A stretch of DNA of 64,000 nucleotides from contig JBAYIY010000007.1 in NCBI GenBank assembly GCA_041665365.1, positions 11,103-75,102 of the forward strand, given 5' to 3'. This DNA is from Patescibacteria group bacterium. GTDB lineage: Bacteria > Patescibacteriota > Patescibacteriia > UBA9570. A model generated the notes under the pieces. The model was not told the origin of the DNA and did not search any database. It saw nothing but the letters and a program-made list of their open reading frames with translations. Shown here in pieces: positions 1,549 through 52,990 of the stretch (within the stretch, counting starts at the first letter, position 1; every line of letters begins with the position of its first letter). The position numbers and the translations under genes were made by a program.

Positions 1549-1564
1549 TTGTTATAATTATTTT

Positions 1565-1888
1565 ATGAAATACACACCAAAAACAGCCACCGGTAAATGG
1601 TCTATTGGCCTAATTATTCTTACGCCAATATTATTTTATATGGGCGGTTTATTATCTTCCACCATGTATAGTGGCGTGGCCGCTGGTAATTCGATTTCAG
1701 AAGATATCGCTAATCGACCGGTATTGGCATATTCAATGATGGCCGGAATGATTGCAGGCATCGCCGCTTGCGCTTTTGGCTTGTATGCCATTGTCAAGCA
1801 AAAAGAAACGGCGACGTTGGTTTATATATCCACTACCGCCGGTGCTCTGCTCATGTTATTTCTCATCGGTGAGCTGATTTTTTCATAG
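1565..1888 (+). CDS. small integral membrane protein (about 3 TM)
   Basis: 107-aa ORF with three hydrophobic spans. Tightly spaced after the previous ORF. Confidence 0.5.
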   Translation: MKYTPKTATGKWSIGLIILTPILFYMGGLLSSTMYSGVAAGNSISEDIANRPVLAYSMMAGMIAGIAACAFGLYAIVKQKETATLVYISTTAGALLMLFLIGELIFS

Positions 1889-7181: not shown

Positions 7182-7210
7182 TTGCGATTAATGTATAACT
7201 AAGGTATAGT
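7182..7210 (+). promoter_or_regulatory. sigma70-like promoter, leaderless layout
   Basis: TTGCGA (7182), 17 nt spacer, TATAGT (7205), then 6 nt to the ATG at 7217. Confidence 0.5.
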
Positions 7211-7216
7211 CTGGTT

Positions 7217-7816
7217 ATGTTAGATGTCATCATTATTTTAGGGAAAGGCTTAACGGCTGATGGCACATTACCAGAGATTGTGCAGCATGAGATTGATTAT
7301 GCTTTAAACCTTGCTAAACCAATTATATTTAGTGGTGATTATTGGGGATTGTGTCCAAATCCAGCTCGTACCACTGAGGCTGAAGCCATGAAAAAGTATG
7401 CTCAAGGCAAAATGCTAACACCAGTACAGTTATATTGTGAAAATAAATCAAAAGACACCATCGGTAATATTATTTTCAGTAAAAAGATTATTGATCAAAA
7501 TAATTTTAAGAATATACTGATATTATCAAGTTTTGATCATATCAAAAGGGTACAATATATTTGTGCACAGGTGTTTAAGAACGATTATGATATTAAATAT
7601 CATGGTCATCAGCACACTTACACCGTTTGGCAATACTTTCATACTAAACGTTACGAACAAATTGCATATTATTATGCTCAGTATTTTTTCTGGAAACTAA
7701 AACGATATCAACCCCAAAATTTGGTGCAGTATGTTTGGCAGCATCATTTTATGTATCGTAATAGCCTTGTGAAAAGGATACTAACTAGTTTAGCGAAACG
7801 ACCGCTACACAGATAA
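7217..7816 (+). CDS. DUF218/YdcF family protein
   Basis: Pattern IIILG.GL..DG......  ....FSG......TEAEAM..Y.......ENKS.DT.GN..FS......ILSSFDH..R matches DUF218. Confidence 0.7.
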   Translation: MLDVIIILGKGLTADGTLPEIVQHEIDYALNLAKPIIFSGDYWGLCPNPARTTEAEAMKKYAQGKMLTPVQLYCENKSKDTIGNIIFSKKIIDQNNFKNILILSSFDHIKRVQYICAQVFKNDYDIKYHGHQHTYTVWQYFHTKRYEQIAYYYAQYFFWKLKRYQPQNLVQYVWQHHFMYRNSLVKRILTSLAKRPLHR

Positions 7817-7952: not shown

Positions 7953-9764
7953 TTACTCAATCCCTAACTCTTTGCGGCGTTGGGCACTTTTATCTAAAGT
8001 CATTTTGCGCATGCGAATATTTTTTGGGGTTACTTCCACCAGTTCATCATCACCAATATATTCGAGTGAAGCATCTAAATCCATGATACGAGGGGCTTTG
8101 AAATGTTCATCAGTCCCATCACCTTTAGACCGCATGTTGGATAGCTGTTTGGCTTTGCAGATATTTACACTTAAATCAGCGGATCGGGCGTGTTGACCAA
8201 CCACTTGGCCTTTATAGACCTCAATGCCGGGACCAATAAACATAACACCACGATCTTGCACATTGCGTAAACCATACAAATTACTCTGGCCGGTTTCGTG
8301 TGCTACCAGTGAACCTTGATCGCGTTCTTTCCAGGCACCCGGGTCAGGCATGTATTTATAAAACATCGTATTCATAATACCCAAACCGCGCGTATCGGTT
8401 AAAAACTCATTGCGGTAGCCGAACAAACCGCGAGTGGGAATAATAAATTCTATGTAAACAATACCGTTATCAGACGTCATGTTTTGCATCTCACCATGGC
8501 GGCTGCCTAATTTTTGAATGACCGCACCCGAGTAGGCTTCAGGCACTTCGATAAAGATTTGATCATACGGCACCATTTTTTTACCGTCTATTTCTTTCAC
8601 AATTACTTGAGGGCGAGACACTTGTAATTCATAACCCTCGCGGCGTAAACGTTCGATCAAGATAGCTAAATGCAATTCACCACGACCACATACAACCCAA
8701 TTACTTTGCGGTCCATCGGTCACACGTAAGGCAGTATCAGTTTCCAATTCTTTAAAAAGCCTTTCCCGAATTTGGCGCGAGGTAGTAAAGTCACCTTCTT
8801 TACCAGCGAAAGGGGAATCATTCACCGAAAAAGTCATCTTCACAGTTGGCTCTTCGATTGTTAAGAGGGGAAGAGCAATCGGATTTTCCGGATCAGCAAT
8901 TGTTTCACCGATATTGGCTTCAGGTACACCGGCCAGAGCTACAATATCACCCGCGGTGGCTGTTTCAACTTCCGTGCGTCCTAAACCGGAGAAGGCCATA
9001 ATAGAAGTGAGCTTCAAAGTTTTTTGCACTCCTTTACGGTCGATATGAACCACATTTTGGCCGGCGGTTAATTTACCATTATAGATGCGACCAGTGGCGA
9101 TTCTACCTTTAAAACTATCGGCGGTTAAGGTAGTGACTAACAATTGTAATGGTTTAGCTGGATCACCAGTTGGTTCAGGAATATATTTTATAATCGCATC
9201 AAATATTGGGGTGATATCGGTCATGTCTTCCAACTTTGGTTCTAAACCCGCTTTGCCCATTTTAGCGGCCGCATACAAAATCGGGAAATCAGCCGTGGCA
9301 TCATCGGCGCCTAATTCTATAAACAAATCAAAGGTGCGGTTGAGTACTTCATTTATACGCGCATCTGGCTTATCAATTTTATTGATCACCACAATCACTT
9401 TTAGCTTCATTTCTAAGGCTTTACGCAACACAAACCGAGTTTGCGGCATGGGGCCTTCTTTAGCATCGATCAACAACAAACAGCCATTGGCCATTTGTAA
9501 GACGCGTTCGACTTCACCACCAAAATCTGAGTGGCCGGGGGTATCAATAATGTTGATTTTAGTATCATTATACTGAACCGAAGCGTTTTTGGAGAAAATC
9601 GTAATACCTCGTTCCTTTTCGAGATCATTACTATCCATGATTAACTCGGCGCCGGTTTGTTCCTTATTTAGGAAAGTTTTAGATTGGCGCAATAAAGCAT
9701 CGACCAAAGTAGTTTTACCATGGTCAACGTGAGCAATAATAGCAACGTTTCGTAGATTTGACAT
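7953..9764 (-). CDS. typA: translational GTPase TypA/BipA
   Basis: 603 aa. AHVDHGKTT, DTPGH, NKID G-motifs, and full-length similarity to BipA by recollection. Confidence 0.95.
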   Translation of the reverse strand: MSNLRNVAIIAHVDHGKTTLVDALLRQSKTFLNKEQTGAELIMDSNDLEKERGITIFSKNASVQYNDTKINIIDTPGHSDFGGEVERVLQMANGCLLLIDAKEGPMPQTRFVLRKALEMKLKVIVVINKIDKPDARINEVLNRTFDLFIELGADDATADFPILYAAAKMGKAGLEPKLEDMTDITPIFDAIIKYIPEPTGDPAKPLQLLVTTLTADSFKGRIATGRIYNGKLTAGQNVVHIDRKGVQKTLKLTSIMAFSGLGRTEVETATAGDIVALAGVPEANIGETIADPENPIALPLLTIEEPTVKMTFSVNDSPFAGKEGDFTTSRQIRERLFKELETDTALRVTDGPQSNWVVCGRGELHLAILIERLRREGYELQVSRPQVIVKEIDGKKMVPYDQIFIEVPEAYSGAVIQKLGSRHGEMQNMTSDNGIVYIEFIIPTRGLFGYRNEFLTDTRGLGIMNTMFYKYMPDPGAWKERDQGSLVAHETGQSNLYGLRNVQDRGVMFIGPGIEVYKGQVVGQHARSADLSVNICKAKQLSNMRSKGDGTDEHFKAPRIMDLDASLEYIGDDELVEVTPKNIRMRKMTLDKSAQRRKELGIE

Positions 9765-9772
9765 AAGGCAAG

Positions 9773-9801
9773 AGTATAATAGGTTACCTTAATGTCGTCA
9801 A
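9773..9801 (-). promoter_or_regulatory. sigma70-like promoter of typA, leaderless layout
   Basis: Minus strand: TTGACG, 17 nt spacer, TATACT, then 8 nt to the ATG at 9764. Confidence 0.55.
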
Positions 9802-17655: not shown

Positions 17656-18477
17656 CTATTTTTTTGGCTTCGTCAACAGTGCATAACTCATTGGATCAAA
17701 CAATATTTCATCAGGTTTAATGCGTTCCTGCAGTAATAATTGCGCTTCCGGATGTCGCTTCTGAAAATCCAGAATGACACCTTCATTCTCGGCTTCATTC
17801 AAGGCACAAGTGGCATAAACTAATCTACCACCGGGTTTTAAAGCTAGCCACAAACCGTTGATTAGCGCGATTTGTTGTTGCTTTAATCTTTTTATACGCG
17901 ATGGTGTCCAAGCGGCTAAATATTTCTCACTGTGCCAGACATGTTTTTCTGAACTACACGGTGCATCCAATAAAATACCAACAAAAAAATCCGGATATTT
18001 TTTAAATAAAATTTCTGATTTTCCCAACTTTATATGAATATTGTTATAACCTGAATTTTGAAAAGTATCTCGTAAACGGTTTATTCTTTTATTGGAATTA
18101 TCATAACAATATAATTTACCGGTATTATTTAATTGGTGAGCCAGCAACGTGGCTTTACCGCCCGGTGCGGCACAAGCATCTAAAATAATTTCACTTGATT
18201 GAACGTTCAAAGCCAACACTGGTTTGAGTGAAGATGCATTCATGATATAGAACCAATTCAGTTCATAACCTGGTAAGGGTATACCAATATCTATACCATC
18301 CGGCCACAACCAAGCCGATTTATACCAATCTAATGGTTTAATACTCAAACCAGCTTTTTCCCATAAGTTAGTTAATTCTGTCAGGTATTTTGGATGAGGC
18401 AGAATGATCGGTTTTGGAGAAAAATTTAACAACTCAATCTGTTTCCCGTAATATTCAATAAATTGTGCTTTAGACAT
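17656..18477 (-). CDS. NOL1/NOP2/Sun-family RNA m5C methyltransferase (RsmB/RsmF-like)
   Basis: DACAAPGGKAT (SAM site), LLDAPCSSEK and YATCAL catalytic Cys motifs. Start moved to the Met at 18477 (MSKAQF). Confidence 0.8.
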   Translation of the reverse strand: MSKAQFIEYYGKQIELLNFSPKPIILPHPKYLTELTNLWEKAGLSIKPLDWYKSAWLWPDGIDIGIPLPGYELNWFYIMNASSLKPVLALNVQSSEIILDACAAPGGKATLLAHQLNNTGKLYCYDNSNKRINRLRDTFQNSGYNNIHIKLGKSEILFKKYPDFFVGILLDAPCSSEKHVWHSEKYLAAWTPSRIKRLKQQQIALINGLWLALKPGGRLVYATCALNEAENEGVILDFQKRHPEAQLLLQERIKPDEILFDPMSYALLTKPKK

Positions 18478-18501
18478 ATTTAGGTATACTATTACCACGA
18501 T

Positions 18502-18962: not shown

Positions 18963-19205
18963 TTACTGTTTTGATTTCGCCAACATTTTGCGCAGATCGT
19001 ATTTACGACCGGCTTTGTCCCACTTGGCCAAGGTGCGTAAACCGGAGGCTGTAATAGTGACAGTGATATGTTTACCTGTCGCCGGATTGAGCAAACGACG
19101 CTTTTGCAAATTGGCATAAACGCGGCGTTTGGTGCGGCGTTTAGAGTGGCTGACATTATAGCCAACCGATGAACTGCGTTTTGTTACTATACATTTCTTT
19201 GACAT
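18963..19205 (-). CDS. rpmB: 50S ribosomal protein L28
   Basis: 80 aa. MSKKCIVTKRSSSVGYNVSHSKRRTKRRVYANLQKRR fits the L28 consensus. Confidence 0.9.
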   Translation of the reverse strand: MSKKCIVTKRSSSVGYNVSHSKRRTKRRVYANLQKRRLLNPATGKHITVTITASGLRTLAKWDKAGRKYDLRKMLAKSKQ

Positions 19206-19213
19206 ACCGGAAA

Positions 19214-19242
19214 ACTATACAGTATTATGTAAAACAAGACAA
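19214..19242 (-). promoter_or_regulatory. sigma70-like promoter of rpmB, leaderless layout
   Basis: Minus strand: TTGTCT, 17 nt spacer, TATAGT, then 8 nt to the ATG at 19205. Confidence 0.5.
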
Positions 19243-34603: not shown

Positions 34604-36784
34604 TTACAACCCCACCGAATACACCTTATTGTCTGACACTACGTAAATGATTTTATTAGCCGCATCGTAGGCCACATCTTTGGCATTACTAAAGGCCGGT
34701 GATTTATATTGCGCTTGTAATTTGCCATCAGCTGATAATACCACAACCCGCTGAGTGCTTGGATTCAGAATAATAAACGGATCATCAGCATTATTTTTCA
34801 CCAGTTTTACACTGCCAGCTAAACTGGGGCTAAACTCTGGCAGTTTGAAATTACTAGACGTGCCACCATCATATTGTTTAACATTACCATCACTAAACAA
34901 TATATAGATGGACGAATCAATATCAAAGGAGATGGCATCTTGCAAACTTTCTGAATCACTCAACCAATTAGTTGGTGTGGCATAACTATTACCGCTTTTC
35001 GTTAATTTCACAATTCTATTCTGATCAGCTGCCATAACGTATAAACGATCAGCAAAAATATCAATATCAGTAATAGCAACTTGATCGTCTTTTAAGCCCA
35101 CCGTGACAGCACTGGTTTTTTCTAACACTGGGTTAAACTGAACAAAGTCTTTATCATTTACTACCGCTAGGGTAGTAGCCGCGGTATCATTTTCGACGGA
35201 TTTGAAACCAGTGGTATCTGTGCCTGATTCAATCACACTGGTCACTTCTTGTTTATCAATGTTGACACGCCACACTCCAGTTGAGCTGCCGGAAAACACA
35301 AAGACATTTTTTCCAATTAAACTGAGTTTTAAATTTTGCGCGTCACCCACTTTATCCGATAAATCACCCACTAAGGTTGGGGAGTCTAGAACAGTGACTT
35401 TGTTTAAGGCCGTATCAAGATTATTTATTTTTGTGCTGCGGTCACCCAGTTTATCAGCCGAAACTGTGCTGATTAATGCTTCCGCCTGCGCTAAGGCTGC
35501 TCTGGCTCCAACTTCATCTTTAACTAGTTGTTTTGATTCCGCTTCACTGATAAACTGATCAATCTCCTGCAAAGAAGCAGCCTGGGTATCAGTCTGCTGT
35601 GAATTATTGTTCGAGCGGCTCTTGATAAACAAACTTATTAAAATTACCAACAGAGTTAAAACCAGCAAACCGGCAAAGATTTTTTGGGGTAAACTGATAT
35701 TCCAGCGGGATCGTCCGACCGAGCGCGACATTGAATTACTGCGTTTAAACAACATTTGCCCGAGCTGTACGCTGATTTTAAATAACCACACCAAGCCGAG
35801 CATGATTTGATGGGCTACATTGACAATGAATTGCCAAATAATCAACAGCACATTCACAAATGCATTTTGCGATTTGGCATAATTATCTTCAACCGCGCGG
35901 CGCTGTTCGGTTTTTCCAGCCGATTGATTACCCACGTACTGTAGCCGTTTCTTAATGGTTGGCCAAATCGACGGTGTTAAAAGATCACCGGTGGTGCGTT
36001 CTTGATCGATCAACTTTGACATGGAATCATTCGTTTCTTTGTCCCGGTCAGCCTCAGTAGTTGTAATATCTATTTTAGTCAGTGATTCAATTGTTTCATC
36101 AGATATATCATTTTGGACATCTTCAAATTTGATAAGCAAAGCCGCAATATTAGTGAGCGTATCTTGATCCGATAGCACTGTATTTAAATACTCCACGCCA
36201 TCAGCTGAAGTATGATCAAGGACGGTGCGGCGTAATTTCTCTAACGATAAATAATTTAGTAAGTTATTAGTACAAAATAACAAACCACCGCGTTCAGGGC
36301 ATTTACCAGATACTAATGTATTAAATAACTTGAGCGGCTGAATTGTATTGGTCGGGGAATACTGCACTATATCAATGATCTCATCACCCTGAATTAAGTA
36401 GCCATCAATTTTACCGACCGTACTAAAATAGGCAGTGGTGCCGTGTAAGACACCGACTATGCCATGACAATGATATGTCCAACCCTCACCATGTTGGTTG
36501 ATTTGATCTTGAATGGCCGTATTGACCTTTTGCAAAGCCCGTTCAAAAGCCGCTTCAATTTCAAAATCACTGGCTCGATAATAGGCAGAAGTGAACATTT
36601 CGTCGATGGCTTGGACAATCGTTTCAGTATATGTTTCGACACTATCAAATTCTAACAATACAAAAATACGCCCCAGGTTTTTATCCTCCAGTGGCGATGG
36701 TTGAGAGACATAGAGATGAATGGCATTCCTCCCCTCGGCTCGATCTAAGAACAACTCACCGAACACAGGCTTATTCATAGGCAT
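34604..36784 (-). CDS. large membrane-spanning hypothetical protein
   Basis: 726 aa. Cytoplasmic N-domain, TM segments near residues 300-390, and a C-terminal repeat/propeller-like extracytoplasmic region. No family recognised. Confidence 0.55.
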   Translation of the reverse strand: MPMNKPVFGELFLDRAEGRNAIHLYVSQPSPLEDKNLGRIFVLLEFDSVETYTETIVQAIDEMFTSAYYRASDFEIEAAFERALQKVNTAIQDQINQHGEGWTYHCHGIVGVLHGTTAYFSTVGKIDGYLIQGDEIIDIVQYSPTNTIQPLKLFNTLVSGKCPERGGLLFCTNNLLNYLSLEKLRRTVLDHTSADGVEYLNTVLSDQDTLTNIAALLIKFEDVQNDISDETIESLTKIDITTTEADRDKETNDSMSKLIDQERTTGDLLTPSIWPTIKKRLQYVGNQSAGKTEQRRAVEDNYAKSQNAFVNVLLIIWQFIVNVAHQIMLGLVWLFKISVQLGQMLFKRSNSMSRSVGRSRWNISLPQKIFAGLLVLTLLVILISLFIKSRSNNNSQQTDTQAASLQEIDQFISEAESKQLVKDEVGARAALAQAEALISTVSADKLGDRSTKINNLDTALNKVTVLDSPTLVGDLSDKVGDAQNLKLSLIGKNVFVFSGSSTGVWRVNIDKQEVTSVIESGTDTTGFKSVENDTAATTLAVVNDKDFVQFNPVLEKTSAVTVGLKDDQVAITDIDIFADRLYVMAADQNRIVKLTKSGNSYATPTNWLSDSESLQDAISFDIDSSIYILFSDGNVKQYDGGTSSNFKLPEFSPSLAGSVKLVKNNADDPFIILNPSTQRVVVLSADGKLQAQYKSPAFSNAKDVAYDAANKIIYVVSDNKVYSVGL

Positions 36785-36814
36785 AGTATACGAAATTGTG
36801 TTATACTTGTCTAT

Positions 36815-37375
36815 ATGTTGGAATCATTATTCGGCTCCCGGACTCGGGTAAAGTTATTACGTCTATTTTTAAGCCACTCTGAGCAACGCTGGTTTGTCCG
36901 TGAATTAACGCGCGTGGTGCAAGAACAAATCAACTCGGTTAGGCGGGAGCTGGGTCATTTAGAGCAGTTAGGTTTAATTACCTCAGCTCAAGAACAACGT
37001 AAAAAATATTATCGCGTGAACACGAATTTTACACTCTATCCGGAATTAAAAGCCTTATTCATTAAAGCGCGCGTCACTTTAGAAAAAGATGTGATTGAGA
37101 AATTATGTCGCGCGGCCAAAGTACGCTATGTCAGTTTACACGGTTATTTTGTGGATGACACTGATAGTGTGGTTGATTTGTTCGTCATTGGTGATATGAC
37201 CGAACGTCAGTTGCAACAACTGTTGGATGATTTCAAACAACAGTTTGGCCGTGAGTTACGCTATACACACATGACCCTGGCCGAATACAAATATCGGCAT
37301 GATGTGACTGACAAGTTTTTGTTTAACATCCTACATAGTAAGCACATTGTCTTGTTTGACCAACTAACAAAGTAA
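36815..37375 (+). CDS. winged-helix (ArsR/MarR-like) DNA-binding protein with C-terminal nucleotidyltransferase-like region
   Basis: N-terminal FGSRTRVKLLRLFL....... FVRELTR......NSVRRELGHLEQLGLI. TGtTATACT extended -10 lies 7 nt before the ATG. Confidence 0.5.
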   Translation: MLESLFGSRTRVKLLRLFLSHSEQRWFVRELTRVVQEQINSVRRELGHLEQLGLITSAQEQRKKYYRVNTNFTLYPELKALFIKARVTLEKDVIEKLCRAAKVRYVSLHGYFVDDTDSVVDLFVIGDMTERQLQQLLDDFKQQFGRELRYTHMTLAEYKYRHDVTDKFLFNILHSKHIVLFDQLTK

Positions 37376-37392
37376 GGGATATACTTTTTCCT

Positions 37393-37482
37393 ATGATTAA
37401 GTTAATCGCAAAAATCAATAATGTGTTAGCGGTGTTTGTGTTATTGCTGGCCGCTACCATAATTTATCTTTATTTTAGATAA
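37393..37482 (+). CDS. 29-aa single-TM small protein (not in ORF track)
   Basis: MIKLIAKINNVLAVFVLLLAATIIYLYFR. Preceded by TTGACC, 18 nt, TATACT, 7 nt, ATG. Its TAA abuts the ATG at 37483. Confidence 0.45.
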   Translation: MIKLIAKINNVLAVFVLLLAATIIYLYFR

Positions 37483-38957: not shown

Positions 38958-38960
38958 AAC

Positions 38961-39050: not shown

Positions 39051-39079
39051 TTGCGAGTTTTATTTTTTTCTGTTATAAT
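39051..39079 (+). promoter_or_regulatory. sigma70-like promoter of the Wzz-like gene, leaderless layout
   Basis: TTGCGA, 17 nt spacer, TATAAT, then 8 nt to the ATG at 39088. Confidence 0.55.
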
Positions 39080-39087
39080 TTTAACCA

Positions 39088-39951
39088 ATGAATTATCTTC
39101 GCATTGTCTTTGCCCATTGGATTGCCATATTGTTCATCACCACTGCGGCCGCGGCGCTTACGGTCGGGTTATCTTTTATTCCTACCCAGATGTATTCATC
39201 GGAGGTGTCTTTATTGATTGTGCAGAAACAAGCGCAGTATGTTGACCCTTACACATCACAGAAAGCTGCCGAAAAGTTGGGGCAAAATTTAGTGAATGTG
39301 ATCGACTCATTTGATTTTTTAAACCGCGTTTTGGCCACCGGCACAGTCTCACCCGATTTATTTAGTGCTTCCACTGATGCCCGTAAAAAACAATGGGAAG
39401 CCATGACTGATGCGGAAATGTTTAGTAACACTGGTGTGTTGCATATCACCGCTTATGCCCCCACCGCCGGTGCCGCTGAAGATGTGGTGATGGCCATGAG
39501 TACAGTGCTCACTACTAATTCATCAGATTATCATGGTGGGGGAGATACCGTTGAGATTAAGCTCATCGATGGGCCGGTCACATCGGATAGTCCGGTAAAA
39601 CCAAACATTCCATTAAATGGTGCGATTGCGGCTGTGTTAGGCCTAATCGCCTCGGCGGCTGTATTTATTGTTTATGAAGAAACCAAACGGTTACAAGATG
39701 AACAAGCCAAGGTGAGGTATGTGCAAACCGTCACGCCTGGTAGAGACGTGCCGCCGGCACGTCTCTACGATGATCGGATTGAAAAATCTGATCAAATCAT
39801 AGAGCCCCAATATAAGGTATTAGATGAATACCCCAAACAGCCATATGTGTATGGTGCGGAATTGAAGGATGAAGAACCTCGCCAAGGGGCGGGTGAACCT
39901 CGCCAAGGGGCGGGTGAACCGGTGTCGATGCAGGATCATTTGAAAAAATAG
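39088..39951 (+). CDS. Wzz-like polysaccharide chain-length determinant with repeat-derived C-terminal tail
   Basis: TM1 at the N-terminus followed by Y.SEV.LLI, and TM2 (GAIAAVLGLIASAAVFIV) near residue 190. The tail contains a family-2 palindrome and a 21-bp tandem. Confidence 0.55.
   Translation: MNYLRIVFAHWIAILFITTAAAALTVGLSFIPTQMYSSEVSLLIVQKQAQYVDPYTSQKAAEKLGQNLVNVIDSFDFLNRVLATGTVSPDLFSASTDARKKQWEAMTDAEMFSNTGVLHITAYAPTAGAAEDVVMAMSTVLTTNSSDYHGGGDTVEIKLIDGPVTSDSPVKPNIPLNGAIAAVLGLIASAAVFIVYEETKRLQDEQAKVRYVQTVTPGRDVPPARLYDDRIEKSDQIIEPQYKVLDEYPKQPYVYGAELKDEEPRQGAGEPRQGAGEPVSMQDHLKK
39740..39768. repeat. family-2 palindrome inside the coding sequence
   Basis: gtagagacgtgcc-gcc-ggcacgtctctac, translated as GRDVPPARLY. 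Confidence 0.85.
39874..39920. repeat. 21-bp tandem repeat (2.2 copies)
   Basis: gaacctcgccaaggggcgggt x2 plus gaacc, translated as EPRQGAG EPRQGAG EP. Confidence 0.9.
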
Positions 39952-40213: not shown

Positions 40214-40760
40214 TCCGGAGTGGGTAAACACCAGTTAGTCTCACACGAATCAGATGAGAACACCATCAAAGTGAAGGTGTTGCCATGTGGTTCGTCTGTA
40301 TAGCCGGTGATCAGCAATGATCGCTGGCTGTCATGAATCACTCAACCCGAAAGGGTTAAGCACATTTACAATCTACTTTCCTACTTCGACTCGTTTCACT
40401 CGCTCAGTATAAATTTATTGAGCATGTAAGCTTGTCGAATGATCATCGGTAGCGATATACAGACCTCATCAATATACATACTTCTTTGAGTACACCACCC
40501 TAGCCCTCCTATTCTAGGAGGGAATAAGAATAAATTTTCTTACTCCCTTCCTACAATAGGAAGGGCCGGGGATGGTGTATTCCGGAGAGGGATACGTATC
40601 CGGAGAGGTCTCCATATCGCTACCGATGAAACCAACAATATCGGAGCTCGGTTCCCCAACGGGGAGACATTCGTCGCGGCAATTTCGCCGTGATGTATGT
40701 CCACCCGGACGTGAACCGGGACCGATCGACTTCACTCGACTACATGGAGCTACGAAAACA
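40204..40760 (+). promoter_or_regulatory. conserved structured 5' leader, copy A
   Basis: A 91-nt block (40204-40294) is identical to 42545-42635. Block 40443-40625 is near-identical to 42712-42917. Long-range stem cggtagcgatatacagacctc / gaggtctccatatcgctaccg. Confidence 0.6.
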
Positions 40761-42236
40761 ATGACGTTCAAGAACATCCTCGCGATCTTCACGTTCATCT
40801 TCGCCATTCTCGCCCCGGCGACCGTCGCCCAGGCCCAGGAGAAGTGGGAGGATCCAAAAGTGGGTCCGTTCACTCTCGGGTACTGGTCGAAGCTCGATGC
40901 CGGCGCGACCAGTGTCGACGCCGCGGCGGCCGGGATCATGAAGAACTTCAAGGAGTGTGAGAGCAAGTACGGCCAGGGTGGGTGCTACATCCAGTTCGAA
41001 TCATCTACTGACATCAACCGCTGGGACAACACCAAGAATGGCAAGGACGACGCATTGCACGGTGGGCTCGGAGAGGGACGCACCGCGGTCCTCAAGGACG
41101 CGGTGTTTTCTCGATCCGCAAGGATCAAGGAATACTCGGTCACCGACTACCCCCACCACGGTGCGAAAGATGGATGGCGGTACTCCTGGGCGACGATCAT
41201 GCCCAAGGAAGGTGCCTCCGCGATGCCGAAGGTGTCGGCCGACCCCAACAAGAGGTGGAGCTTCCTCACGGAAGTGCTCCTCCGCCAGACCGATAACCTC
41301 TGTCCCACGATGGTGCGGGCGGACGCGGTCACGCGAACCTACACCCTGCAGGGTCAAACCTGCGGGTGCAGCACGTTCGATGCAGTGCCCAGCACCCGCC
41401 AGTTGGAGGTCAGGAACGACCTCACCTGGTTGGGAAAGGTCGTCGCGGACCGCTCGAAGTGGTCCGACGCGAAGACTTTGACCTGGACGGAAGTCCGGGC
41501 CGCTCTCGAGGAGGGCACCGAGTCCCGCGTCATCGAAGTCGACGCGCTCGGCGATCCGTCCTCCACGCCCGACGGTCTGTCCGTTGAGTTCGTGGAGTCG
41601 GAGACCCTGCTCCGGGTGCAGTTCCCGGACAGGTGCTCGCCGATCCTCGACGCCGCGAAGGCAGAGGCCGACGCCAAGGCGCAAGCCAAGGCTCAGGCCG
41701 ACGCCGACGCCCGCGAGTCCGCAAGGCTCGCGGCGTACAACACCGACTTCATGGTCGGTGGGTCGGTCGCGGGTACGGGGACGTTCATCCCCAAGTACAG
41801 CCCCTTCAACCCGGGCAGGGGTTTCGACCTCGCCGGGCACGTCGAGGGCGGTGCGGTGATCGGCGGCGGGTACGGCGCGTGGGCTTTCGGGCTCGGCGTC
41901 GGCCCGTCGTGGGACCCGAACTGCCTGACCCCCGGCCAGGTTGACCTCGAGGCCTTCACCGGCCCGTGGCTCAACAGGCAGGGGAAGGTCGGGTTCTCCG
42001 CCTTCCTGAACGGATCTGCGGGCTTCACCATGTACAACGGTGAAGTCCTCACCCCGCGGTACCGCCTGGGTCTCAACCTGGGCGTGCCCGTGCAGGTGGA
42101 GCGTGAGCTCTACCTGGTTCCCCAGATCGGCCCCGTGGTCGACTGGGTGAGCGGGCAGGTGCAGGCGACCGGCGGCTTCGCGATCACCGAGCGAGTCGGG
42201 ATCGCGGGTGGTCTGCGGATCATCAAGACGTTCTGA
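40761..42236 (+). CDS. high-GC exported protein with C-terminal beta-barrel-like domain (foreign-type)
   Basis: ORF track gives 40572..42236. The true start is likely the ATG at 40761, after GGAG, because it begins the signal peptide MTFKNILAIFTFIFAILAPATVAQA. Strong GC3 bias. Gly/aromatic-rich last ~170 aa, ending in Phe. Confidence 0.7.
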   Translation: MTFKNILAIFTFIFAILAPATVAQAQEKWEDPKVGPFTLGYWSKLDAGATSVDAAAAGIMKNFKECESKYGQGGCYIQFESSTDINRWDNTKNGKDDALHGGLGEGRTAVLKDAVFSRSARIKEYSVTDYPHHGAKDGWRYSWATIMPKEGASAMPKVSADPNKRWSFLTEVLLRQTDNLCPTMVRADAVTRTYTLQGQTCGCSTFDAVPSTRQLEVRNDLTWLGKVVADRSKWSDAKTLTWTEVRAALEEGTESRVIEVDALGDPSSTPDGLSVEFVESETLLRVQFPDRCSPILDAAKAEADAKAQAKAQADADARESARLAAYNTDFMVGGSVAGTGTFIPKYSPFNPGRGFDLAGHVEGGAVIGGGYGAWAFGLGVGPSWDPNCLTPGQVDLEAFTGPWLNRQGKVGFSAFLNGSAGFTMYNGEVLTPRYRLGLNLGVPVQVERELYLVPQIGPVVDWVSGQVQATGGFAITERVGIAGGLRIIKTF

Positions 42237-42553: not shown

Positions 42554-43053
42554 TTCCGGAGTGGGTAAACACCAGTTAGTCTCACACGAATCAGATGAGA
42601 ACACCATCAAAGTGAAGGTGTTGCCATGTGGTTCGAAGAGTCATAGTCGATCAGCAATGATCGCTTGTGACCACGAAACACAATTTGTTCTTTAAAATCT
42701 TCTGCTAAGAATCATCGGTAGCGATATACAGACCTCATCAAGCATACACACTTCTTTGAGTACACCACCCTAGCCCCCCGCCTTGCCGGCGTGGCAGGTC
42801 CTATTCTAGGAGGGAATAAGAATAAATTTTCTTACTCCCTTCCTACAATAGGAAGGGCCGGGGATGGTGTATTCCGGAGAGGGATACGTATCCGGAGAGG
42901 TCTCCATATCGCTACCGGTGAAAACAATACCGGCGTGCTCGGTTCCCAGAATGGGAAAGATGCGGTTGTGGGAATGTTCCCATGACATGTGTTCTACCCT
43001 GTTCAAAAGAACCGGGACCGATCGACTACACAATTTCGACTGGAGCTACGACA
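42545..43053 (+). promoter_or_regulatory. conserved structured 5' leader, copy B
   Basis: See copy A. Same block order, with the middle segment shortened and a 22-nt GC-rich insert at about 42786. Confidence 0.6.
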
Positions 43054-43839
43054 ATGACGCTCAAAAACATCGTGATCTCGCTCGCGCTCGTCGTCGGTTG
43101 CAAGATGGGCCCGGTGCAGGAATGTGACTCGGACTCGGACTGCTTCGAAACCAACACCAACTCCGATACCGACACCGACGCGGACACGGACACGGACGCC
43201 GACGCTGATACGGACACGGACTCCGACACCGATACCACCGAAACCGACGTGGACAACGACGGCGACGGGTACACCGTGGACGGCGGGGACTGCAACGACG
43301 CCAACGCCAGCGTCCACCCGGGCGCGACCGAGTACTGCAACGGCGTCGACGACGACTGCAACGGGTCGATCGACGACAATGACACCGACGGGGACGGGTA
43401 CGTCTCCGACGACTGCACGTCATATGACGGAGTCGCCGGCCTCCCCGGTGGTGATTGCGCGGATTCGATCGGGACGACGGCGTCCTGGTCGAACAGCGAT
43501 ATCCACCCGGGGCAGTTGGAAATGTACGACTGGATCGACACTAACTGCGACGGCACCGCCGACGATGGATGTAGTATGTTGTGCGACACCGACGGCGACG
43601 GATACGAGAATTTCGAACAGGGCAGCGGGCCCGAGTTCGAGTGCGTGGACGCGTCGTTCGTGGCGGATCAGTCCGCCTCGAGCAGCCCGTTCGATACGAC
43701 GATCTCGTGGACGTATGCCTCCAGCGGAGTGGTTTACTCCGGTGTGAACGCAACGTGCGAAATGACGGCGGCCCAGCAGGTCGATCCGTCAACCTGGAGG
43801 ACGATCACGTCCATCCAGGCCGAGATGGCCACCCGCTAA
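43054..43839 (+). CDS. high-GC lipoprotein with (D-T)n tract and MopE-type Cys-rich motifs (foreign-type)
   Basis: Start at the ATG at 43054 after GGAG. Lipobox LALVVGC. DTDTDADTDTDADADTDTDSDTDT tract. DGDGYTVDGGDCNDANASVHPGATEYCNGVDDDCNGSIDD. Confidence 0.7.
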   Translation: MTLKNIVISLALVVGCKMGPVQECDSDSDCFETNTNSDTDTDADTDTDADADTDTDSDTDTTETDVDNDGDGYTVDGGDCNDANASVHPGATEYCNGVDDDCNGSIDDNDTDGDGYVSDDCTSYDGVAGLPGGDCADSIGTTASWSNSDIHPGQLEMYDWIDTNCDGTADDGCSMLCDTDGDGYENFEQGSGPEFECVDASFVADQSASSSPFDTTISWTYASSGVVYSGVNATCEMTAAQQVDPSTWRTITSIQAEMATR

Positions 43840-44107: not shown

Positions 44108-44134
44108 TTGACGTGACCTTTTTTTTGATATAAT
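44108..44134 (+). promoter_or_regulatory. promoter with extended -10, leaderless layout
   Basis: TTGACG, 15 nt spacer containing TGa, TATAAT (44129), then 8 nt to the ATG at 44143. Confidence 0.45.
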
Positions 44135-44142
44135 ATCGATTT

Positions 44143-44391
44143 ATGACTACGGCTAAATTAGTAAAAACAGTAAATTCATGTCCAAAGACAAGTTTGAATG
44201 ACAAACCGGTTGTTATGATACCCATGGAACTATGGGAAACGCTTCAGGTACAATTACTAACAAGACCAGTCCCGACTTATTATTTGCAAGGAAAAGAGGC
44301 AAAACAATTAGATCATCTTGTTCAACAAGGTATAAACGCAGCTCGATCGAGAAAAACTAGAGTAATAACTTCACTTGCAGAGTTAGATTAG
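44143..44391 (+). CDS. putative type II antitoxin (Phd/YefM- or RelB-like)
   Basis: 82 aa. KPVVMIPMELWETLQ resembles the antitoxin N-domain. A toxin-like remnant follows 4 nt downstream. Confidence 0.4.
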   Translation: MTTAKLVKTVNSCPKTSLNDKPVVMIPMELWETLQVQLLTRPVPTYYLQGKEAKQLDHLVQQGINAARSRKTRVITSLAELD

Positions 44392-44562: not shown

Positions 44563-45966
44563 TCAGCGATCCATTTGGCCGTGTGGCCTTGTCTCCACAA
44601 CAATCATGGCTAGCACTGTCATATATGTCCACATCACGGCGGTACCTTGGAGTAGATTATCACTGACACTAATTGTTAGCGCGGCAATAATTAAGGCCAT
44701 ACCAAACAGAGCATAGTGTTTTTGCCAGCTGTCTTCATGGTGGCTAACATAATTCCAGAATAGTGTTACTAACAAACCTAGCCAGAAACCAAGATACAGA
44801 GCCAAACCAACGAAGCCGGTTTCAATGGCTAAACGGAGATAATCATTATGGGCTTCAGGGTCATCAAACAAACCGATATCGCCCTGTTGTCTTAAAGTCA
44901 CAAAGTTGCCTAAACCGTAACCGAGAAGGGGAGAATTGAGGGTTTGCGGTGCCATAGTTTGAAACACCTGTAAGCGCCAATCAATCGAATCGGCTTCCTC
45001 ATCACGACTGGTTAGGCGATGTAAGAGGTTTATTTTATTTAGATCATAATTAAAAGTATTGATGGTAACAGTGTTGATTACTTGCCACAACAAAAATGCA
45101 CCGACTAAGACAGTAGCAATAGTGAGTAATTGTTTACGATAATATTTTAGGCCAATTAATATTTGAATGACGACAAAACCAATCCAGGCACCTCGAGTAT
45201 AGGTGAATAATAACATCACCAACCCCAAGCCGATTAGCCATGGATATATTAAAGACCGTTGTTCAGGTTTTTTAGTCAGTTGGGTGATTAATAATAAATT
45301 TATGATACATACCAAATAAAACCCAAACACATTCGGGTGACCAAAGGTGCCATAGACGCGGTTATCTAAACCACCAAATGATAGCCCGGTGGCGGTAATA
45401 AGCTGCACCAAGCCAGCGGCTAATGGTATCACCAGAGCCACGGCTAGTACCGGTGTTAGCCGCGTGATACTGTGTGGTTGTGTGGTAGCCACGTGGTAGG
45501 CAATTATAAAAATAATCACAATCGAACTGAGGCGGAGCCATTCACTCAATGAGATAAATGTATCCAAGCTGACACCCAAGGTGGCGGCTCCCCAGATTAA
45601 AACTCCAATCAGCCAGCCCAATTGGGTAGTGGCACTAAGTTCAACCCGTTCTCTAAGTAGAATTACTAAGAACCACACAATCACCAATATTGCCACCATG
45701 GAAGTTAAATTTATAGTGACTGATCGAATGGTTAAAAGGCCATAGCCAGAAAATATATCAATGATCGGGCGAAAGATGAGTAGGGCATATAAACCATACT
45801 CGGTTTTTAATAAAAAAATTGGGGCGATAATTACAATGGCCGCTAAGCCAATGGCGGATGTAGCAGAAATATCTCCAAATACTATCCAGCCTAATACACT
45901 TAACACTGTTAGGCTGTATATAATTAAAAGTATGGTGTTGAATTTTGAAAGTGGGGAGAAAGACAT
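44563..45966 (-). CDS. O-antigen ligase-like (Wzy_C/RfaL family) membrane protein
   Basis: 467 aa, about 11 TM. YTRGAWIGF and EAHNDYLRLAIETGFVG motifs. Confidence 0.75.
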   Translation of the reverse strand: MSFSPLSKFNTILLIIYSLTVLSVLGWIVFGDISATSAIGLAAIVIIAPIFLLKTEYGLYALLIFRPIIDIFSGYGLLTIRSVTINLTSMVAILVIVWFLVILLRERVELSATTQLGWLIGVLIWGAATLGVSLDTFISLSEWLRLSSIVIIFIIAYHVATTQPHSITRLTPVLAVALVIPLAAGLVQLITATGLSFGGLDNRVYGTFGHPNVFGFYLVCIINLLLITQLTKKPEQRSLIYPWLIGLGLVMLLFTYTRGAWIGFVVIQILIGLKYYRKQLLTIATVLVGAFLLWQVINTVTINTFNYDLNKINLLHRLTSRDEEADSIDWRLQVFQTMAPQTLNSPLLGYGLGNFVTLRQQGDIGLFDDPEAHNDYLRLAIETGFVGLALYLGFWLGLLVTLFWNYVSHHEDSWQKHYALFGMALIIAALTISVSDNLLQGTAVMWTYMTVLAMIVVETRPHGQMDR

Positions 45967-45987
45967 TGAGATTATTATAACACATCA

Positions 45988-46103: not shown

Positions 46104-47159
46104 TTACTTGACGGCGACCGTAGGGTTCGCCACCACGAGGATACTCCCCATGATGGTCTCCACGTCGCCGGCGTAATTCCCGCCGGCATTGTGGAGGTCG
46201 ATCCCCTCGGCCTTCACCACCTCTTCCCGGACGCCGTCAGCGACCGGGAAAGCCACCTCGCCCTCGCCGTACGAATCGTCGACGACGAAGAAGAAATGAT
46301 CCCGGGCGACTTCACAAAGTCGTTTGCCCGGGAGAGTGGTCAGACTCGAACACTTGAACCCCTCCGGCAGCACGAGGATGCTGCCCATCGTGAGTTCCGG
46401 AATCGTTCCGGTGTACTCACTCAGGGCGTAGCTATCCCCGGAGCCGGCGAGGGGCCCGGTGAAGCAATCGTAGCCCGACGAGGCGCCATCGCCGCAAGAG
46501 AGGTGGGTATGATCCACCTCAATGGGCAACGGCCGCCCGATCGGGCCAGTCTGAGTCAATTCTCCCACACGCACCGCCTGGGTCGCGGTCGTGTGGGAGC
46601 CACCGTGAGCCCCAACCCAGCGGGTGGAGTCATATCCCTTCTCACACGCGCTGAACGGCGCGGAGTCGGGGAGGACCCACCCGGACGAGCCGTCGAAGTA
46701 GCTGATTTCAACAACGGTACCGTCAGGCTGCAGGGCCGTGACGATCCCATTGTTGTACAGATCATCCGACGTGTCCCTCATGGCGAAGGAATCGGGGAGG
46801 TAAACCTCCCTCGTTCTCCTGCCATCGGGGGCTGTCACGGTCACCGGTGACGAGTCTTTCGACCCGTCGAGGACAAAAACCGGGTCGATGTCGACCCAGT
46901 CAAGTCCTCCGTCCCAGTCCGTCTCGACCGTCCGGGCGATCTTGCGATCAACCTGGAGGTCACGGATCTGGAACGGCACCGAGGCCCAGCACTCGGCCGG
47001 GGTCTCGGTGTCGGTGTCCGCGTCAGTGTCAGAGTCGGTGTCCGTCTCCGCTTCGGGGCAGGTCGCCCCGGGCAGAGACGGATCACAATTGAGCTCTCCA
47101 CACCCCGCCACCAAAATGGTGACCAGGACGAGGAGCAGCTCGATGATGTAGCGCAACAT
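46104..47159 (-). CDS. high-GC lipoprotein with (D-T/S)n tract (foreign-type)
   Basis: 351 aa. Lipobox LVAGC. ETDTDSDTDADTDTE tract. Strong GC3 bias. AAGGAG lies 6 nt before the ATG. Confidence 0.7.
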   Translation of the reverse strand: MLRYIIELLLVLVTILVAGCGELNCDPSLPGATCPEAETDTDSDTDADTDTETPAECWASVPFQIRDLQVDRKIARTVETDWDGGLDWVDIDPVFVLDGSKDSSPVTVTAPDGRRTREVYLPDSFAMRDTSDDLYNNGIVTALQPDGTVVEISYFDGSSGWVLPDSAPFSACEKGYDSTRWVGAHGGSHTTATQAVRVGELTQTGPIGRPLPIEVDHTHLSCGDGASSGYDCFTGPLAGSGDSYALSEYTGTIPELTMGSILVLPEGFKCSSLTTLPGKRLCEVARDHFFFVVDDSYGEGEVAFPVADGVREEVVKAEGIDLHNAGGNYAGDVETIMGSILVVANPTVAVK

Positions 47160-47272
47160 GACTGCTCCTTACCCCTGGTCGGGGTGGGGGGACTGTTTGT
47201 TCGTCAAGTAATATGAATTTGGAAAGAACTAGTGTCGCTTACAGACAAAATTTGCCCATAAACGAACCGCAC

Positions 47273-47301
47273 AATATACCCTATTTTTGACGTTTTGTCA
47301 A
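47273..47301 (-). promoter_or_regulatory. near-consensus sigma70 promoter driving the third high-GC gene
   Basis: Minus strand: TTGACA, 17 nt spacer, TATATT, then a leader of about 110 nt. Confidence 0.55.
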
Positions 47302-47322
47302 GGGTTCTGCTACAATAAGCCC

Positions 47323-48543
47323 GTGAATATTCTGCAAATCAATAAATTCTTCTATCGGCGGCGGGGGGCAGAAACATACTTATTTGATCTCTCTGAATTA
47401 TTAAGAAGTAAAGGTCATAATGTCGCCGAGTTTGCTATGGTTCATCCAGACAACGAACCATCACCGTGGAGTGAGTATTTTGTGTCCGAAGTTGATTATA
47501 GCCAAAAAACTTTAGCGGGAAATATTAAAGCGGCAGCGAGAATGTTTTGGAGTACAGAAGCGCAAAGAAAACTGGATGCGTTGTTGGATGTGTTTAAACC
47601 AGATGTGGCACACATTCATAATATCTATCATCAAATTAGTCCATCTATTTTAGTCACCTTAAAGAAACGGGGGATACCGATAGTATTAACCCTGCATGAT
47701 TACAAATTAATTTGTCCGAATTACGAAATGTTTACGGGCAACCAAGTGTGCATGCGCTGTAAAGGGCGTAAATATTATAATGCGGTGTTGCATAAATGTA
47801 TTAAAGGTTCCGTGGGTATGAGTGCACTGGTTATGTTTGAAATGTATCTGCATAAAATGATGCAAGTGTATGAACATGAGGTTGATTGTTTTATATCACC
47901 ATCACAGTTTTTAAAAAAACAAATGTTGGATTGGGGTGAGCAAGTGAAGCGCATCGAGGTTATACCAAATTTTGTGCGTGCACCCATCACGGACGGTGTG
48001 ATGGACGGGTCGGATGCATCCCGTGTAAACGATGTCTTATACGCAGGTGCTCTTTCCCGCATCAAAGGGGTCGATTTAATCCTTGACAATTTCCGGAAAA
48101 ATCGGTACTCTGGCCGGTTACTATTAGCTGGGTCTGGGCCAATGGAGGCCGAAATAAAAGCTGAGAGTAACGAAAATATTGTGTATTTAGGACAGCTTAG
48201 TAAACAGGAATTAGCCAATCGGGTTAAAGAATGCCGGGCGGTGATTGTGCCATCGCGGTATCATGACAACTTTCCCTATGCAGTGCTTGAAGCTTTTGCA
48301 GCCGGGAAACCGGTGATTGCCAGTCACCGGGGTGGTATGCCAGAATTGGTGCAGCCGCGTCACACTGGCTGGTTATTTGAACCAACTAAACCAGACAGTT
48401 TAACAGCGGCTTTAACCGAAATGTTTAAACGAGACGATTTAGTAAAACAGTTTGGTGAGGCGGCCTGTCAAGTAGCCAAAACACACAACCCAGAAAAACA
48501 CTATGAAACGATTATTTCTCTTTATCAGTCTCTGCTTAGCTAG
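47323..48543 (+). CDS. GT4-family glycosyltransferase
   Basis: ORF track starts at the TTG at 47287. The GTG at 47323 gives the typical N-terminus (V)NILQINKFFY..GGAE. C-terminal EAFAAGKPVIAS..GG.PELV. Confidence 0.8.
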   Translation: MNILQINKFFYRRRGAETYLFDLSELLRSKGHNVAEFAMVHPDNEPSPWSEYFVSEVDYSQKTLAGNIKAAARMFWSTEAQRKLDALLDVFKPDVAHIHNIYHQISPSILVTLKKRGIPIVLTLHDYKLICPNYEMFTGNQVCMRCKGRKYYNAVLHKCIKGSVGMSALVMFEMYLHKMMQVYEHEVDCFISPSQFLKKQMLDWGEQVKRIEVIPNFVRAPITDGVMDGSDASRVNDVLYAGALSRIKGVDLILDNFRKNRYSGRLLLAGSGPMEAEIKAESNENIVYLGQLSKQELANRVKECRAVIVPSRYHDNFPYAVLEAFAAGKPVIASHRGGMPELVQPRHTGWLFEPTKPDSLTAALTEMFKRDDLVKQFGEAACQVAKTHNPEKHYETIISLYQSLLS

Positions 48544-52097: not shown

Positions 52098-52990
52098 AAC
52101 TAGTTTGTGTCATCGTTACCAAGGATCGTCCGGAAGATTTACGCCGGTGTTTAGCTAGTATTGTTTCAGCTGATCAAATTATTATTGTTGATGGGAGTAT
52201 TACAGCCAAAACAGTGGCTAAAGAATTTCAGTGTGCTTATTATCAATCTAAACCTGGTATTACCAGACAACGTAATCTGGCTAGACAACATATACCTTCA
52301 GACACCGACATTGTGGTGTATTGTGATGATGATACTGAATTATCACCCAACACTTTAATTAAAGTTAGAGAAATTTTTGCAGCTCAACCTGAAGTAGTTG
52401 GCCTAACTGGTAATTTAGATCAAACAGTTAAACACAATTTTTTCAAGAGACTGTTTGGGCGGTTAAGTCTAACATACACAAAACAACCCTACGGTTTTAC
52501 GACGGGTATATTTAATATCATAAATTCAGTAACTCAACCTACTAAAGTTGATTGGCTACCCGGTGCGTTTATGTGTTATCGCTGGTCAGTTGTGCAGGAT
52601 ATAATATTTGATGAATGGTTTACAGAGTACGGTTTAGGAGAAGACTTTGATTTCAGTTATCGCGTGGGTACATTAGGAATTTTGCTCGCTGACCCAAGTA
52701 TTGTTGTAGCCCATCATCATTCTCAAGTGAATCGAAATTGGAAGAAATTTGGCTATATGCGCCTGGTTAATCGCAACTATCTAAGAGTGAAATTATGGCC
52801 AAAACAAGGCCTTTATTGGCTTGGAATGTGGTGGTCTAATATGTGGTTATTGGCCATGCCGTATCGACCGGAGTGGATAGGGGAAATGCAGGGGCTCTTG
52901 ACAATTCTGTTAAAACGCGCTATATTTCCACGTTATGAAAATAACCTTTATAGGACAAAAGGGTATCCCAGCACTGGCCGGCGGCGTTGA
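52094..52990 (+). CDS. GT2-family glycosyltransferase
   Basis: MKLVCVIVTKDRPEDL and DDD motif (YCDDDTE). Confidence 0.7.
   Translation: MKLVCVIVTKDRPEDLRRCLASIVSADQIIIVDGSITAKTVAKEFQCAYYQSKPGITRQRNLARQHIPSDTDIVVYCDDDTELSPNTLIKVREIFAAQPEVVGLTGNLDQTVKHNFFKRLFGRLSLTYTKQPYGFTTGIFNIINSVTQPTKVDWLPGAFMCYRWSVVQDIIFDEWFTEYGLGEDFDFSYRVGTLGILLADPSIVVAHHHSQVNRNWKKFGYMRLVNRNYLRVKLWPKQGLYWLGMWWSNMWLLAMPYRPEWIGEMQGLLTILLKRAIFPRYENNLYRTKGYPSTGRRR

Follow-up and report, generated by a model that had tools for sequence, protein, structure and literature searches.

Start-abutting sigma-70-type promoters and scarce Shine-Dalgarno motifs point to leaderless transcription in a Patescibacteria genome

The locus and its start-proximal promoters

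The window, by which is meant the whole stretch of 64,000 nucleotides subjected to analysis, contains genes in which a -10 hexamer is positioned only 6-8 nt before the start codon. Listed in Table 1 are the coordinates of these sites, together with those of three high-GC genes and of a REP-like repeat. Eight promoter strings of this type had been quoted in a preliminary description of the DNA, and all are present verbatim at the positions claimed, with those of typA and rpmB reading on the minus strand. Additional examples precede a 107-aa ORF, a Wzy_C gene, a second GT4 glycosyltransferase gene and the gene for UDP-glucose dehydrogenase, as well as a 726-aa gene if its second ATG is used, and a weaker one precedes an RsmB-like methyltransferase gene. 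The start codons are in accord with the Pfam domain boundaries of L28, DUF218 and Wzz and with the N-termini of TypA orthologues.

The typA product contains the Pfam domains GTP_EFTU and BipA_C, and its N-terminus matches those of its orthologues. Its promoter ranks among the top three between positions 1 and 20000 according to an independent promoter scanner, which also located the rpmB and DUF218 promoters there. It begins just 22 nt past the stop codon of the upstream gene, which encodes 1451 residues, and no terminator separates the two. The closest relatives of this TypA, with identities of 60-83%, belong to Microgenomates, Curtissbacteria, Doudnabacteria, Patescibacteria MAGs and a Rifle aquifer contig. 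The best hits, at 60-72% identity, carry CPR labels except for a few that fall on mislabelled or unlabelled MAGs, and the non-CPR bacteria reach at most 55% identity. Judged by sequence, the source genome is that of a CPR/Patescibacteria member, Microgenomates-like in character.

Table 1 Positions of the start-proximal promoters, the high-GC gene starts and the REP-like sites
Feature	Position	Strand	Elements and remarks
typA/BipA promoter	9762..9801	-	-35 TTGACG 9796-9801, 17 nt, -10 TATACT 9773-9778, 8 nt, ATG 9762-9764
rpmB (L28)	19203..19242	-	TTGTCT-17-TATAGT-8-ATG; Pfam Ribosomal_L28 alignment begins at residue 3
DUF218 gene	7182..7219	+	TTGCGA-17-TATAGT-6-ATG; Pfam DUF218 alignment begins at residue 3
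ArsR-like wHTH gene	36778..36817	+	TAGGCA-18-TGtTATACT-7-ATG; faces a divergent promoter within a 30-nt intergenic gap
Divergent 726-aa gene	36776..36813	-	TAGACA-17-TATACT-6-ATG, with the second ATG (36778) taken as start
29-aa hydrophobic small ORF (37393-37482)	37356..37395	+	TTGACC-18-TATACT-7-ATG
Wzz-like gene	39051..39090	+	TTGCGA-17-TGtTATAAT-8-ATG; Pfam Wzz alignment begins at residue 3
82-aa gene (44143-44391)	44108..44145	+	TTGACG-15-TGaTATAAT-8-ATG
GT4 glycosyltransferase (406 aa)	47287..47325	+	TTGACG-18-TGcTACAAT-6-GTG
107-aa ORF	1550..1567 (ATG 1565)	+	TGtTATAAT-6-ATG; 16 nt past the upstream gene
Wzy_C (O-antigen polymerase-like) gene	45964..45982 (start 45966)	-	TGtTATAAT-7-ATG
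GT4 (380 aa)	52898..52937 (ATG 52935)	+	TTGACA-17-TATATT-8-ATG
UDP-glucose dehydrogenase	55463..55501 (ATG 55499)	+	TTGACA-17-TATAGT-7-ATG
RsmB-like methyltransferase (weaker example)	18475..18491	-	TAGTAT-8-ATG; divergent from ribH, 24-nt gap
High-GC gene 1 (40761-42236)	40746..40763	+	GGAG-11-ATG at the signal-peptide start 40761
High-GC gene 2 (43054-43839), lipoprotein with MopE motifs	43042..43056	+	GGAG-8-ATG at 43054
High-GC gene 3 (46104-47159)	47157..47301	-	TTGACA-17-TATATT (47273-47301), leader of ~107 nt, AAGGAG (47165-47170), 5 nt, ATG
REP-like GTAGAGACRTGCC sites	33228-33292, 33963-33975, 39740-39768, 45993-46020		

Three pairs of divergent starts, 18477/18502, 29696/29734 and 36784/36815, are separated by gaps of only 24-37 nt, which leave no space for leaders. 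Within the third of these, the wHTH gene and the 726-aa gene have promoters that overlap physically and interlock (36776-36817). The wHTH label given to the former in the preliminary description is backed by sub-threshold ArsR-like hits. The promoter string itself is exactly as reported. For the 726-aa gene, the called ATG at position 36784 directly adjoins the -10 box, and the second ATG is probably the true start. In the first pair, ribH carries a TATACT box 11 nt 5' of its ATG, for which a leader of ~4 nt is predicted.

The TAA stop codon of the 29-aa ORF, MIKLIAKINNVLAVFVLLLAATIIYLYFR, adjoins the ATG (37483) of a DUF5656 gene. The ORF is missing from the public gene calls and is a candidate for a small membrane peptide made from a leaderless mRNA or, alternatively, for a uORF with a coupling function. 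That it represents a split-off N-terminus of the DUF5656 protein was ruled out, as positions 11-239 of the 242 in the profile are matched without it. As had been written, the 82-aa gene has an extended -10 promoter, in which the TTGACG lies only 15 nt from the -10 box. The label of antitoxin previously attached to this gene is unsupported, given that no matches were found at E<=1 in Pfam or at E<=0.1 in NCBIfam. For the 406-aa glycosyltransferase, the earlier choice of the GTG at 47323 over an upstream TTG is that of the public gene caller as well. Its promoter physically overlaps that of high-GC gene 3 on the opposite strand, and the two -35 boxes form the palindrome TTGACGTTTTGTCAA (47273-47316). 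The promoter of the 380-aa glycosyltransferase gene is situated within the upstream gene, the two genes overlapping by 56 nt.

An internal example of native sigma-70 consensus use is provided by the gene for tRNA-Trp (4707-4778, minus strand), which has a good TTTACA-17-TATAGT promoter (4801-4829), with 22 nt between it and the mature 5' end. No rRNA was detected within the window or the examined flanks. The REP-like palindrome GTAGAGACRTGCC is found in nine copies versus 0.12 expected, mostly as inverted pairs that form long hairpins, and one such pair lies within the Wzz-like ORF. The site at 33228-33292 is an 18-nt tandem array, of which the window has one unit more than the ENA contig described below.

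Position and promoter character of the -10 boxes

For the spacing analysis, a strict -10 box was defined as having T1, A2 and T6 with at least five of six matches to TATAAT. Gene calls were taken from the near-identical ENA contig ERZ27249449:k141_1147325 (85.6 kb), with 67 genes over 74 kb. A strict box at a spacer of 6-8 nt is observed in 12 of these 67 genes against a background of 2.3% of ATGs (P=3.6e-8). This layout is more common among genes heading a transcription unit (9/32, or 28%) than among operon-internal genes (3/35), and with a looser rule or corrected starts ~40% of the unit-heading genes in the 74 kb sampled display it. When the starts were instead defined, blind to the motif, as those of the longest ORFs, the count was 10 of 56 versus ~1.3 expected from all ATGs, with not one strict box at spacers of 1-5 or 9-10 nt; an automated version gave 8 of 52 versus 1.2. 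At the called starts the boxes with spacers of 6, 7 and 8 nt number three, four and five, respectively, with zero at 1-5 and few at 9-10, and 12 of the 26 matches at spacers of 0-19 nt fall at 6-8 (P=1.6e-4). The upstream regions are AT-rich (30% GC in the parts that were shuffled). Shuffling the last 20, 30 or 40 nt upstream of each gene produced means of 1.9-2.6, and a count of 12 was reached in none of 5000 trials. In approximately ten further genes, among them uppP/bacA with a spacer of 16 nt, the -10 box is located at a distance of 9-16 nt from the start, and for these leaders of 2-10 nt are predicted. The enrichment at 6-8 nt first noted by eye holds over the 74 kb and across several definitions of the start.

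The abundance of promoters is another matter. Between positions 1 and 20000 there are 59 promoter-like sites, a total not above the 51.8 (sd 8.1) found in shuffles, and for this reason abundance was dropped as evidence. From 36500 to 56000 the corresponding values are 50 and 36.4 (sd 5.6), and 7 of the 12 top hits of the scanner in this region have a start codon 6-8 nt away. The position of the boxes, rather than the abundance of promoters, is the non-random feature.

That the start-proximal boxes belong to promoters is indicated by their surroundings. A TTGnnn hexamer with at least four of six matches is located at a distance of 16-18 nt in 7 of the 12 boxes as compared to 3.2% of the remaining 803 hexamers that resemble a -10 box (P=6e-8), and a TGn extension is present in 7 of the 12. 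By the sigma-70 criteria, namely a -35 box spaced 16-18 nt from the -10 box or, alternatively, a TGn extension of the -10, one feature or the other accompanies 11 of the 12 boxes versus 13.7% of hexamers elsewhere (P=5e-9). This difference argues that the boxes are sigma-70 promoters and not a translation signal in the mRNA. A promoter-anchored test, in which the gene calls were ignored, led to a similar result. Specifically, 14 of 92 full promoters have, at 6-8 nt, an ATG or GTG that opens an ORF of 60 aa or more, when 2.2% would be expected (P=1.4e-8). Eleven of the 14 ORFs correspond to called genes.

Shine-Dalgarno motifs, internal genes and the high-GC genes

Motifs resembling a Shine-Dalgarno (SD) sequence, defined as GGAG, GAGG or AGGA at positions -18 to -4, precede 5 of the 67 called starts (7.5%). 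They occur at 2 of the 35 internal genes and at none of the 29 native genes that head a unit. Some of the rare SD-like matches in front of native genes stem from two G/C-rich segments. The first, cccctctccttctgaaggagaggggagtaaggggagagg, is hairpin-forming and is situated at ~20768-20822, at the 3' end of a sufC-like ABC-ATPase ORF and just 5' of sufB, and a similar one, ccccctgcaagggggttggggg, lies upstream of 34489 on the minus strand. A few genes have longer leaders that are also devoid of an SD, such as the SIMPL gene at 19270 (~35 nt).

Neighboring genes on the same strand are separated by no more than 27 nt in 35 of 50 cases, and 4-nt ATGA overlaps are frequent. Internal genes without an SD are most likely translated by termination-reinitiation at the overlapping or adjoining stop and start codons. 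The region from -20 to -1 has a GC content of 30-32% versus 42% for the genome. The words ATAA and ATAAT are enriched 5' of the internal genes, mostly at spacers of 0-2 nt and including the TAA stop of the upstream gene.

A thymine immediately precedes the start codon in 47 of the 67 genes, as compared to 25% of all ATGs. In the CPR group closest to the window, T takes up position -1 in 64% of cases, as opposed to 34% in CPR members that are more distant and 29% in non-CPR genomes. A U at this position is able to pair with A37 of the initiator tRNA (PMC10018350), and such pairing may carry greater weight where the SD is unused. The possibility that this thymine reflects a pyrimidine/purine rule for transcription start sites (TSSs) was rejected, given that the bias is shared by internal genes (26/35, with A in one) and unit-heading genes (21/32). 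Note that 66 of the 67 called genes start with ATG, an unusually high proportion to which a bias of the gene caller possibly contributes.

Among the 32 unit-heading genes, the SD-like motif is found solely at the three high-GC genes, and the contrast drawn between these and the native genes in the preliminary description is borne out, with three genes in total on one side of it. The GC3 values of these genes are 0.79-0.85 as opposed to 0.39-0.40 for native genes. Apart from Asp/Thr-rich linkers their amino acid composition is ordinary, and thus the difference is one of codon usage. In high-GC gene 3 the GC content rises from 0.36 to 0.63 approximately 40 nt 5' of the ATG, which places the SD within the putative imported segment, and the promoter, which matches the consensus, is located in DNA of native GC content. 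The called start of high-GC gene 1, at 40572, falls in a duplicated element that lies upstream. For both high-GC genes 1 and 2 the called starts are probably too far upstream, with the true ones at the ATGs of the signal peptides. The proposal that the GC islands are foreign is in keeping with the contrasts in SD usage and GC3. It is plausible, as judged from three genes, and the search for a donor found none: a homology search over 5.8 billion proteins with the product of high-GC gene 1 matched only itself (an ORFan), and for that of high-GC gene 2 the Pfam matches are to the MopE motifs alone.

The three genes are embedded in a native cluster for cell-envelope polysaccharides. Their products are secreted or lipoprotein-like with 'DTDTD' linkers rich in Asp and Thr, and the MopE motifs of the second are metal-binding. 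A duplication of ~330 nt is found 5' of high-GC genes 1 and 2 (40309-40635 and 42649-42927), with a 129-nt core that is 98% identical. The element has 25-nt inverted-repeat arms (40443-40467 and 40605-40629) as well as a hairpin around a TACAAT box, and it may represent a shared long structured leader or the boundary of a mobile cassette.

Leaderless transcription and its alternatives

The spacer test, applied blindly to other genomes, demonstrated that the style is not confined to the window. CPR loci with TypA identities of 55-63% gave 13 of 147 versus 1.8 expected (P=6e-8), CPR genome loci 7 of 103 versus 1.3, and CPR loci with TypA identities of at least 67% gave 6 of 116 versus 2.2. In the non-CPR genomes, Firmicutes and Proteobacteria serving as controls, there was no signature (3/314 versus 2.4). 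SD-like motifs have frequencies of 13-18% in CPR, 29% in non-CPR genomes and 45% in the Firmicutes subset. The leaderless-type style is common to several CPR lineages and, among the sets tested, is strongest in the window.

Leaderless transcription in M. tuberculosis has as its published signature a Pribnow box that lies 6-8 nt from the start codon, and dRNA-seq has validated this signature in several species (PMC6028130, PMC3160421). In group C of GeneMarkS-2, which includes Actinobacteria such as M. tuberculosis and Deinococcus-Thermus, the box is found at the first genes of ~25-50% of operons (PMC6028130). Zheng et al. (2011) described TA-led genes in Chloroflexi, Mycoplasma and other groups, where in genomes of mid or low GC content the motif is TAtaaT, often TG-extended (PMC3160421). 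The window resembles both in its sharp box at first genes (28% by the strict definition), in its hexamers TATAAT, TATACT and TATAGT, and in its TGn extensions. It differs from group C, where the remaining genes use SDs, in that such motifs are nearly lacking from its internal and native unit-heading genes. In group B, by contrast, for example Bacteroidetes, the same motif precedes all genes, whereas the box in the window is tied to a -35 or TGn element and favors unit-heading genes. As in archaeal group D, a promoter at a fixed distance would set the beginning of the mRNA at the start codon, but the archaeal TATA box is ~22-26 nt upstream (PMC6028130), whereas in the window there are zero hits at spacers of 17-24 nt and the promoter is of the bacterial sigma-70 type.

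The nearest functional parallel, not one of shared ancestry, is Mycoplasma pneumoniae of the unrelated Mycoplasmatota. In this organism SDs precede 8.1% of genes, ~16% of transcripts are leaderless-like, and translation is efficient regardless of SD or leader (PMC10568206); for the window the values are 7.5% SD-like and 18% leaderless layout, with TSSs that are predicted here and were measured there. M. pneumoniae has no ribosomal protein S1 (PMC10568206), and CPR members retain a shortened bS1 (PMC9297842). In mycobacteria, leaderless short ORFs can be the first gene of a polycistron (bioRxiv 10.1101/834739). The 29-aa ORF, located 7 nt past a strong promoter and ending at the next ATG, resembles these in layout. 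It differs in that its putative peptide is hydrophobic and not Cys-rich.

CPR/Patescibacteria are absent from the lineages named in PMC6028130 and PMC3160421. Tsurumaki et al. (2022) reported that the anti-SD motif has been lost in part of the Parcubacteria, in an article that does not contain the term 'leaderless' (PMC9297842). A full-text literature search found no report of leaderless transcription in Patescibacteria, CPR, Saccharibacteria or Microgenomates, although an earlier group classification of CPR genomes is possible. The leaderless-rich, SD-poor style is therefore an expression mode known elsewhere that was not found reported for a CPR lineage.

On the basis of the published leaderless signature, with which the 6-8 nt spacing coincides, the best explanation for the layout is leaderless transcription from start-abutting sigma-70 promoters, and this is considered likely. 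According to this explanation, promoters of the sigma-70 type, with either -35 and -10 boxes or a TGn-extended -10, would be set such that RNA polymerase begins at the start codon. The TSS would be the A (in one case the G) of the start codon, or lie within 1-2 nt of it, at a distance of 7-9 nt from the T that closes the -10 box. The mRNAs would have no 5' leader and hence no SD, and ribosomes would load directly onto the 5'-terminal AUG with the initiator tRNA, 70S ribosomes being known to initiate on leaderless mRNAs (PMC10568206). Within the 74-kb stretch, roughly one quarter to two fifths of all transcription units would be built in this manner. Downstream genes would be served by termination-reinitiation, possibly aided by the AT-rich context with U at -1. 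The claim of the preliminary description that leaderless or near-leaderless mRNAs without SDs constitute a genome style agrees with all of the sequence-level tests that were run, namely localization, promoter character, scarcity of SDs and recurrence in CPR. With regard to strictly leaderless initiation, spacers of 7-8 nt could yield leaders of 1-2 nt.

A related but unlikely explanation is that compaction of the genome has placed real promoters close to the genes, with TSSs a few nucleotides upstream and leaders of 1-10 nt, in which case streamlining alone would be at work and a 5'-AUG would have no special role. The very short intergenic regions accord with compaction, as does the second class of -10 boxes at 9-16 nt, and the internal genes are evidently translated without an SD, such that a leader would not be needed for ribosome recruitment. 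Crowding would be expected to spread the boxes more widely, however, whereas the sharp peak at 6-8 nt fits the distance from a -10 box to a TSS and is identical to the validated leaderless signature of other phyla (PMC6028130).

Still less probable is that the mRNAs arise mainly from upstream promoters or operon read-through and carry SD-less leaders, the start-proximal boxes being weak or silent secondary promoters. Three of the 12 boxes do lie inside tight operons, promoter-like matches are common in AT-rich DNA (59 versus 51.8 in shuffles), and, given that no terminator stands between typA and the gene upstream, leadered read-through transcripts may coexist with leaderless ones. Read-through leaves unexplained both the positional enrichment, which was reached in 0/5000 shuffles, and the association with -35 and TGn elements. 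Furthermore, the divergent pairs with their gaps of 24-37 nt offer no other place for a promoter, and the consensus is perfect or near-perfect at several sites, among them TTGACA-17-TATAGT and TTGACA-17-TATATT.

It is quite improbable that the box is an AT-rich, non-SD translation signal in the mRNA, comparable to that of GeneMarkS-2 group B or to S1-dependent A/U-rich enhancers. The ATAA and ATAAT words before internal genes and the low GC content from -20 to -1 are in line with such a signal, but the enrichment at internal genes is mainly at spacers of 0-2 nt and includes the preceding TAA stop. Boxes of the 6-8 nt class are, moreover, enriched at unit-heading genes and carry -35 or TGn elements with the proper spacing of 16-18 nt, for which an mRNA signal would have no need. 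An artefact, to which AT-rich upstream regions, examples picked by eye and the preference for GTG over TTG in the GT4 gene might have contributed, was tested and can be dismissed with near certainty in light of the composition-matched shuffles, the three independent start definitions, the Pfam boundaries and the fact that the public caller, too, settled on the GTG at 47323.

Beyond the leaderless transcription of first genes, a wider proposal is put forward more tentatively. In this Microgenomates-like CPR lineage nearly the whole native proteome might be translated without SDs, with leaderless first cistrons, reinitiated downstream cistrons, a lineage-specific pairing of U(-1) with A37, and SDs retained solely by high-GC genes of recent import. 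Should the style prove to be genome-wide and be borne out by TSSs, CPR would join Actinobacteria, Deinococcus-Thermus and Chloroflexi among the leaderless-rich lineages and would be the second genome-reduced group, after Mycoplasma, that is nearly without SD-dependent initiation. The reduced CPR ribosome would then be tied to an SD-independent regime of initiation, a point relevant to the question of whether leaderless initiation represents an ancestral trait or an outcome of streamlining. In practical terms, gene callers that score SDs will misplace starts in such CPR genomes, and those at 36784, 40572 and 29696 indeed look shifted. For expression tools in the newly tractable Patescibacteria, promoter-to-ATG fusions would be preferable to SD cassettes. 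The presence or absence of an SD could, in addition, serve as a simple, composition-independent marker of recently acquired genes in these genomes.

The layout at typA itself is rarely conserved. It is shared by only two of ~45 orthologues, and a conserved typA layout across CPR was accordingly rejected; the signature thus belongs to the style of the genome rather than to a conserved site. Many of the CPR relatives display a different arrangement outside of the window, in which a strong sigma-70 promoter is followed by a short leader with the shared motif ~ttatCCwGCTG and by a GC-rich hairpin with a T-run, terminator-like in appearance, that ends 2-25 nt before the ATG. This arrangement was seen at 12 loci, 40-110 nt upstream of typA, and in one of these the terminator is enclosed by an outer stem. 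In an Rfam search of the window and 12 CPR loci the matches were limited to tRNAs, RNase P and an FMN riboswitch, with nothing at the promoters or the typA leaders and zero family matches for the leader element. The arrangement possibly serves as an attenuator or leader of typA that is conserved in CPR.
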